Shown here piece by piece: positions 100 through 261 of a stretch of 555 nt of DNA (position 1 is the first letter of the stretch; each line of letters starts with the position of its first letter). Made by a program: the position numbers and the translations under genes. The notes under the pieces were generated by a model. The model searched no databases. It was not told where the DNA came from and was given only the letters and a program-made list of their open reading frames with translations. The stretch is from a phage: the sequence record EF517115.1; one strand, 5' to 3'.

Positions 100-107
100 G
101 GGAGGAG
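100..107 (+). promoter_or_regulatory. Shine-Dalgarno ribosome-binding site for the downstream small ORF
   Basis: GGGAGGAG at 100-107, purine-rich and complementary to the 16S rRNA 3' end, with a 4-6 nt spacer (ACTC) before the ATG at 112-114. Confidence 0.75.
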
Positions 108-111
108 ACTC

Positions 112-261
112 ATGTTCCGCTTATTGTTAAACCTACTGCGGCATAGAGTCACCTACCGATTTCTTGTGGTACTTTGTGCTGCCCTTGAGTACGCATCTCT
201 TACTGGAGACCTCAGTTCACTGGAGTTTGTCGTTTGCTCTATACTCACTTGTAGCGATTAA
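112..261 (+). CDS. Small hypothetical protein, 49 aa, homolog of T7 gene 19.5 product (function unknown)
   Basis: ATG at 112 preceded by a strong SD; open frame to TAA at 259-261. Hand translation: MFRLLLNLLRHRVTYRFLVVLCAALEYASLTGDLSSLEFVVCSILTCSD. All three reverse frames across this interval contain stops, so there is no competing antisense ORF. Length, position just left of the terminal repeat and sequence match my recollection of T7 gp19.5. Not independently verified. Confidence 0.8.
   Translation: MFRLLLNLLRHRVTYRFLVVLCAALEYASLTGDLSSLEFVVCSILTCSD

Follow-up and report, generated by a model that had tools for sequence, protein, structure and literature searches.

Gene 19.5 is the last gene of the bacteriophage T7 genome, lying downstream of promoter phiOR with terminase gene 19 on one side and the right terminal repeat on the other, and the same gene order is also found in phiA1122 and Vi06. 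Its product is non-essential and is predicted by TMHMM to be a short membrane-spanning protein (PMC2680503). After deletion of the holin gene 17.5, the A24D substitution in gp19.5 was the one strongly compensatory change, with a benefit confined to the holin-deleted background and a delay of lysis in the wild type, and E38G arose in recovery from endolysin disruption (Heineman, Bull & Molineux, 2009; PMC2680503). The same study called gene 19.5 a candidate for alternative holin activity, said only that a membrane role is left open by its results and described late lysis in a 19.5 deletion mutant, noting that the deletion phenotype of older work may partly stem from the adjacent M-hairpin (PMC2680503). 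A24D and E38G, together with rising 19.5 mRNA, were also reported in a passaged T7 holin deletion (Xu et al., 2021; PMC8365609). Seamless removal of only 19.5 leaves a viable phage whose plaques are much smaller and whose burst is 152 vs 224 (PMC12153263), and in T7+ infection the 19.5 transcript is the most abundant at 25 min (PMC6938266). Family databases list no function for gp19.5 (DUF5465 in Pfam, 'unknown function' in PHROG). An earlier sequence-only reading of the DNA studied here had held that T7 gp19.5 has no assigned function, which stands as far as these databases go, but the literature provides a candidate secondary holin or lysis role (PMC2680503; PMC8365609).

Our analysis concerns a window of 555 nt, by which we mean the whole stretch of phage DNA analysed, and the copy of gene 19.5 that it carries (Table 1). 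The right end of T7 (NC_001604, 39278–39832) and the window align with no gaps, 545 of 555 positions being identical (98.2%); BLAST gives 98.4% identity across 552 nt. The window starts about 50 nt downstream of phiOR, which is annotated at 39229 in T7, and takes in gene 19.5 and the non-coding DNA to the right of it. Its open reading frame begins with ATG and encodes 49 residues (MFRLLLNLLRHRVTYRFLVVLCAALEYASLTGDLSSLEFVVCSILTCSD), where the reference T7 gene reads ...CAALGYASLTGDLSSLESVVCSILTCSD and ends in TAG. The sequence-only reading had assigned this frame to gp19.5, an identification borne out both by the alignment to T7 39389–39538 and by the NCBIfam model NF040465 (T7_gp19.5), which scores 78.2 bits against a cutoff of 33 and covers residues 3–49. 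Pfam PF17553 (DUF5465; 39.6 bits, cutoff 25) and PHROG 2193 (E = 4e-22) match the protein as well. Compared with T7 protein 19.5 (T7p60, NP_042013; UniProt Y195_BPT7), the locus, length, frame, Shine-Dalgarno sequence and flanks are all alike and 47 of 49 residues are identical; the window differs by G26E, S39F, a TAA stop in place of TAG and one synonymous change. The first three of these had been given correctly in the sequence-only reading, as alignment and translation of the reference T7 gene demonstrate, and the synonymous G129A had been missed. The family-invariant residues (the H11–L18 block, G26, E38 and C42) are all kept except G26, which is Glu in the window protein. Judged from these matches, membership of the window protein in the gp19.5 family by descent is not in doubt; its retention of function is.

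Table 1. Features of the 555-nt window, its differences from reference T7 (NC_001604) and the sister alleles of its gp19.5
Feature	Position in window	Strand	Description and basis
Shine-Dalgarno GGAGG	101..105	+	6 nt 5' of gene 19.5 ATG; same in reference T7
Gene 19.5 CDS, variant allele of T7p60	112..261	+	Corresponds to NC_001604 39389-39538; 49 codons + TAA stop
Residues 1-16, basic Leu-rich N-terminal segment	112..159	+	R3, R10, H11, R12, R16; putatively cytoplasmic
Residues 17-31, putative transmembrane helix	160..204	+	FLVVLCAAL(G>E)YASLT; hydropathy, Hessa scale, TMHMM, AF2
Residues 32-49, break G32-D33 then acidic helix	205..258	+	C42-x4-C47; putatively periplasmic; AF2 helix 34-47
C>T	90		Window vs NC_001604 alignment
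G>A	129..129	+	Synonymous, Leu6 TTG>TTA; derived relative to four outgroups
G>A	188..188	+	G26E; charge replaces invariant Gly mid hydrophobic helix; reference alignment and translation
C>T	227..227	+	S39F; C-terminal helix, adjoins invariant E38; reference alignment and translation
G>A	261..261	+	Stop TAG>TAA, silent; reference alignment
G>A	342		Window vs NC_001604 alignment
G>C	363		Sole transversion of the window; window vs NC_001604 alignment
C>T	410		Window vs NC_001604 alignment
G>A	547		Inside terminal repeat
C>T	553		Inside terminal repeat
Sister allele			V23
Sister allele			V23+I31+T48
Sister allele			V23+F39
Sister allele			E26+F39 (window protein)
Sister allele			E26+F39+T48
Sister allele			E26+E32+C39

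The 49-codon frame is preserved in 30 sequences (29 fetched loci and the T7 reference) whose identities range from 44 to 100%. In natural orthologs, codon positions 1 and 2 of the H11–L18 block, G26, E38 and C42 are invariant and position 3 is variable, and because the first two positions are fixed while the third varies, selection acts on the gp19.5 protein and not on the DNA. Among these orthologs dN/dS was overall only moderately below 1: comparisons with close relatives gave 0.35–0.52, and that with one distant relative gave 1.19. By this codon pattern gene 19.5 is a real, translated gene and not a chance open reading frame. The HRVTYRF block was also considered as a DNA element (TAGAGTCACCT at 144–154 repeats TAGAGTGACCT at 33–43) and rejected, since its third codon positions vary, and an Rfam scan of the window returned only a chance-level snoRNA match (19 bits vs a gathering score of 50). 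An exhaustive phmmer search of 1.84 billion representatives yielded eight matches, none of them at E ≤ 1e-10. The gp19.5 family is small and confined to T7-like phages, so that remote homology is of no help with function.

Some members of the family depart from the T7 arrangement or carry unexpected labels. In the Salmonella phage Vi06, the codon aligned to the T7 ATG is a Leu codon within an open frame (…GGDSLFRLLL…), and gene 19.5 may there start with a codon other than ATG or at another place; just upstream of 19.5, where the terminase gene would stand, this phage has an HNH endonuclease gene. Two gp19.5-family proteins are filed under bacterial names, WP_353846506.1 as 'Staphylococcus hyicus' and WP_161954300.1 as 'Escherichia coli', on contigs of about 20–40 kb; they look like T7-like phage genomes or contamination of bacterial assemblies, not bacterial genes.

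The basic, leucine-rich N terminus, the hydrophobic core and the three cysteines (C22, C42 and C47) described in the sequence-only reading are all present. Residues 1–11 form a strongly amphipathic basic segment with a hydrophobic moment of 0.77, and the invariant H11–L18 block (HRVTxRFL) falls mostly within residues 1–16 and extends to nt 165. The Kyte-Doolittle maximum and the minimum of the Hessa-scale sum both lie at residues 17–31, with values of 2.07 and –0.16 in the wild type and of 1.87 and +1.78 in the window allele. The AF2 model, which is of modest confidence (pLDDT 67.7, from a 6-sequence alignment), consists of a helix at residues 2–31, a break at G32–D33 and a second helix at residues 34–47. 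From the positive-inside rule we infer an N-in/C-out topology, with the acidic Cys-containing tail outside. Within C42-x4-C47 (235–252), codon positions 1 and 2 of C42 are invariant and those of C47 are 0.92 conserved, and the two cysteines could form a disulfide if the tail is periplasmic.

From the literature and the sequence, we propose a working mode in which gp19.5 would be a highly expressed late protein of 49 residues with its basic N-terminal segment on the cytoplasmic side, residues ~17–31 lying in the inner membrane as one hydrophobic helix and, on the outside, a C-terminal helix that is short, acidic and Cys-containing. Acting as an accessory factor, it would tune membrane permeabilisation or lysis timing together with burst size, non-essential yet adding to fitness. 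In outline gp19.5 would work like a phage holin, such as T7 gp17.5 (class II) or the single-TMD class III holins and antiholins: it is small and late, with one predicted TMD, charged flanks and lysis-timing genetics. However, gp19.5 differs from phage holins in that it lies outside the lysis cassette, can be deleted without loss of lysis and is only a putative hole former. The hhalign comparison of gp19.5 with the T7 holin gp17.5 detects no relationship (probability 0.08%), and at E ≤ 1 Pfam returned only DUF5465 and no holin family. The term 'accessory holin or lysis-timing factor' is used here for a functional hypothesis, not for family membership.

A different role was put forward by Kim et al. 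(1997), who, as cited in Heineman et al. (PMC2680503), proposed that gp19.5 takes part in generating the M-hairpin. On that account the protein would serve DNA maturation, through formation or processing of the M-hairpin in concatemers, and the effects on lysis would be indirect. The position of the gene agrees with this, as it lies in the packaging and terminal region beside the terminase gene and ends 30 nt upstream of an imperfect inverted repeat (291–331) whose arms of 19 nt are 79% complementary and enclose a 3-nt loop. Folded as single-stranded DNA, this repeat reaches –7.2 kcal/mol, more stable than shuffled versions (z = –2.8), and it is free of the window's ten mutations. It may correspond to the 'M-hairpin' that has been described next to gene 19.5 in concatemer processing. 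However, gp19.5 has the look of a membrane peptide (hydrophobic helix, TMHMM) and not of a DNA-binding protein, and no nucleic-acid-binding domain was detected in it with Pfam or NCBIfam. The compensatory changes are specific to holin or endolysin perturbation (PMC2680503; PMC8365609), and the deletion reported as seamless still cut plaque size and burst (PMC12153263). We consider a maturation role quite unlikely.

The flank beyond the inverted repeat is itself repetitive. Between 8 and 547, and most densely at 329–547, there are 13 copies of the heptamer CCTAAAG, variants with one mismatch included, against 2.4 expected, and none of 200 shuffles reaches 13; we take this array to be the short repeats known from T7 genome ends. 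The change at 547 converts a perfect heptamer to CCTAAAA and that at 363 converts CATAAAG to CATAAAC. The T7 terminal repeat (TCTCACAGTG...) begins at window position 501 and the window ends 55 nt into it; in each T7 record, BLAST also aligns this segment (501–555, TCTCACAGTGTACGG...), which includes the mutations at 547 and 553, to a second location.

Two non-conservative changes in so small a protein had been thought notable in themselves, an impression that the rest of the window does not support. Ten derived substitutions are present window-wide, and gene 19.5 carries four of them in 150 nt against six in the 405 nt of the flanks (Fisher P = 0.47), a density no higher in the gene. G:C>A:T transitions account for nine of the ten, A:T>G:C changes are absent, and the single transversion, G>C, is also at a G:C pair. 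Given the 44.7% G+C of the window, finding all nine transitions at G:C has a P of about 7e-4. The coding sequence offers 25 synonymous, 44 missense and 1 nonsense G:C>A:T changes, of which one synonymous and two missense were observed; the missense:synonymous ratio is what G:C>A:T mutation by itself would yield. We polarised the differences with four natural relatives (phiA1122, Bas102, Vi06 and vB_Yep_15). The T7 base equals the outgroup majority at all ten sites, and at eight of them the window base is absent from every outgroup. Because T7 agrees with the majority throughout, every one of the ten changes is placed on the branch of the window and T7's own branch has none, which direct descent of the window from reference-type T7 would predict.

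This polarity bears on the possibility that the DNA comes from a natural T7-like phage and that its differences are ordinary allelic variation. Close natural relatives do exist at 95–97% identity, and some relatives have TAA stops or a T at 410. However, variation between natural phages does not look like this: natural relatives differ from T7 by about 40% transversions and by transitions in both directions, and measured against their G:C>A:T share of about 36%, nine of nine again has a P of about 7e-4. The division of changes between the branches, ten to none, argues in the same direction, as does the invariance of Gly26 in nature. Among 50,697 phage records, none is closer to the window than T7, and neither E26 nor F39 occurs there in any T7-like gp19.5; none of the assembled contigs searched encodes the exact window protein, and none of the IMG/VR contigs contains the doubly mutated 52-mer. 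The protein is, moreover, labelled as phage T7 itself and sits inside a block of variant T7 alleles. A natural source is very improbable in our estimation.

That block contains the window protein in exact form, as UniProt A9XLC3 (A9XLC3_BPT7), equivalent to GenBank ABR22995.1 and ABR22996.1. It comprises 13 consecutive accessions, ABR22985–ABR22997 (UniProt A9XLB3–A9XLC5), all labelled Escherichia phage T7, and the 10 that our look-ups returned hold six variant gp19.5 alleles (Table 1). Among the accessions returned, E26 is found in ABR22987, ABR22995, ABR22996 and ABR22997 and F39 in ABR22989, ABR22995, ABR22996 and ABR22997, so that the window has E26 in common with the sister alleles ABR22987 and ABR22997 and F39 in common with ABR22989 and ABR22997; other sister alleles differ from it in having A23V, T31I, G32E, S39C and S48T in other combinations. 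The series includes seven changes in all (A23V, G26E, T31I, G32E, S39F, S39C and S48T), each of which needs one base change at a T7 G:C pair, five being G:C>A:T and two G:C>C:G; the series is known here from its proteins alone, and these base changes are read off T7 codons. The non-transition changes are all G:C>C:G, namely G363C in the window, S48T (AGC>ACC) and S39C (TCT>TGT, if directly from Ser39), and the residues of this type are carried among the sister alleles by ABR22987, ABR22988 and ABR22997.

Deamination damage and certain polymerase errors leave a G:C>A:T bias too. The differences could for this reason be suspected of being sequencing, PCR or DNA-damage artefacts, cytosine deamination for example. 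Against this, E26 and F39 recur in several separate accessions, nested as inherited mutations would be, and Sanger errors are far too rare to produce a divergence of 1.8%. We give an artefactual origin next to no weight.

An excess of G:C>A:T with all changes derived relative to the T7 ancestor, as found here, is expected of a laboratory-mutagenised T7 lineage. From the accession order, and from their timing and content, we presume that ABR22985–ABR22997 belong to the 2008 work of Sousa, Ze-Ze, Silva and Tenreiro. That work (Mol Phylogenet Evol 48:563) is said to describe a T7 'known phylogeny' after Hillis et al. 1992. The explanation that we favour, with moderate confidence, is that the window copy represents a T7 lineage descended directly from reference-type T7, in which mutations would have accumulated under a G:C-targeted mutagenic regime, the most likely source being a laboratory experiment of the 'known phylogeny' type in which T7 was propagated in the presence of nitrosoguanidine. 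The two missense changes (G26E and S39F), the silent one at Leu6 and TAG>TAA would be four of ten mutagen-type hits distributed evenly across coding and non-coding DNA. Because the ten-hit load is spread in this way, the four changes in gene 19.5 would be untargeted hits, and the substitutions passive by-products of mutagenesis, the protein itself not having been targeted.

With respect to the agent, nitrosoguanidine-evolved T7 shows GC>AT changes and frequent parallel hits, according to PMC5850294, which discusses Cunningham et al. (1997). A 5'-purine context, of the type associated with alkylating agents, is present at eight of nine sites; with a baseline of 66% in the window this is not significant (P = 0.14), and we rejected it as a nitrosoguanidine fingerprint. 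Heat is reported to raise both G:C>A:T and G:C>C:G in phage T4 (PMC8923235). The G:C>C:G transversions are not what nitrosoguanidine typically produces and could also come from heat or from damage of the deamination type, which makes nitrosoguanidine a candidate agent and not an established one.

A reading that gives the protein a more active part is that the substitutions are adaptive, serial passage having selected gp19.5 changes that retune lysis timing at two hot spots. In its full form this reading would have gp19.5 regulate the timing of lysis as a single-pass peptide resembling a secondary holin or an antiholin, with the hot spots on the small-residue A24/G26 face of the membrane helix and the E38/S39 turn of the outer helix, both struck repeatedly upon passage of T7, and G26E and S39F would have been selected and convergent. 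Like A24D, G26E puts an acidic residue into the hydrophobic helix, two residues away, and resembles it biophysically on the Hessa scale; E38G adjoins S39F, both pairs falling within two short stretches of gp19.5, and A24D and E38G were compensatory or adaptive in two independent studies (PMC2680503; PMC8365609). The sister alleles add recurrence: codon 39 changed to F at least twice, in the V23 and E26 backgrounds, and to C once (at least three changes), S48T occurs in both the V23 and the E26 background, and two pairs of sites, 23x39 and 26x48, do not pass the four-gamete test.

However, recombination or shared ancestry among lines may explain the repeated residues, about six GC>AT missense events over 44 possible sites would give one coincidence with a probability of ~0.3, and mutagen hot spots and parallel hits are on record for mutagenised T7 (PMC5850294). 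Both the density of changes in the gene and their missense:synonymous ratio match the neutral expectation under a G:C>A:T spectrum. A24D, for its part, is favoured only without the holin and delays lysis in the wild type (PMC2680503). In addition, A24D (a C>A transversion) and E38G (an A>G transition) were selected after holin deletion or endolysin disruption, without a mutagen; those of the window, in contrast, are G:C>A:T hits amid a generally mutated background. Selection on gp19.5 appears unlikely to us, and we think it equally doubtful that the protein is the convergently evolving regulator just described; if it were true, the ABR alleles would amount to a natural mutational scan of gp19.5 still to be exploited.

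Whether acquired passively or not, the substitutions probably differ in their consequences. Alignment to T7 gp19.5 and its orthologs, the check suggested in the sequence-only reading, confirmed both replacements and separated an invariant site from a variable one. All 23 distinct natural orthologs of 49 aa have Gly at position 26, as do all eight distant representatives, and the codon for it shows synonymous variation. On the Hessa scale, the cost of inserting residues 17–31 rises from –0.16 to +1.78 with G26E (about +1.9 kcal/mol) and to +3.22 with A24D (about +3.4 kcal/mol). Glu at this family-invariant position would weaken membrane insertion or helix packing, and the predicted consequence of G26E is that function is probably lost in part or altered, in the manner of A24D. 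Such a change would be tolerated since the phage can do without gene 19.5 and since deleterious changes become fixed in bottlenecked mutagenised lines. Position 39, by contrast with Gly26, varies in natural orthologs (S in 14, V in 5, A in 3 and Y in 1), and S39F is probably tolerated or near-neutral despite adjoining the invariant E38. The TAG>TAA change is probably near-neutral too: it can be regarded as silent because the third base of the stop varies among relatives, where the majority base reaches only 65% of natural orthologs and A is present in two of the four outgroups. G26E is likely the only change of functional weight. Taken together, a laboratory-evolved, mutagenised T7 line, with gp19.5 acting as an accessory membrane or lysis factor and G26E as a partial loss, is the joint explanation that we hold to be reasonably probable.

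Gene 19.5 and this exact protein allele are already publicly deposited, and the finding is largely ordinary. The differences from reference T7 mark the provenance of a mutagenised laboratory lineage and not new biology of gene 19.5. The residual value lies in G26E, which falls at a family-invariant glycine two residues from A24D, the compensator of holin loss, and the deposited series (A23V, G26E, T31I, G32E, S39F/C and S48T) offers a cheap starting set for work on a long-suspected second lysis or membrane factor of T7.
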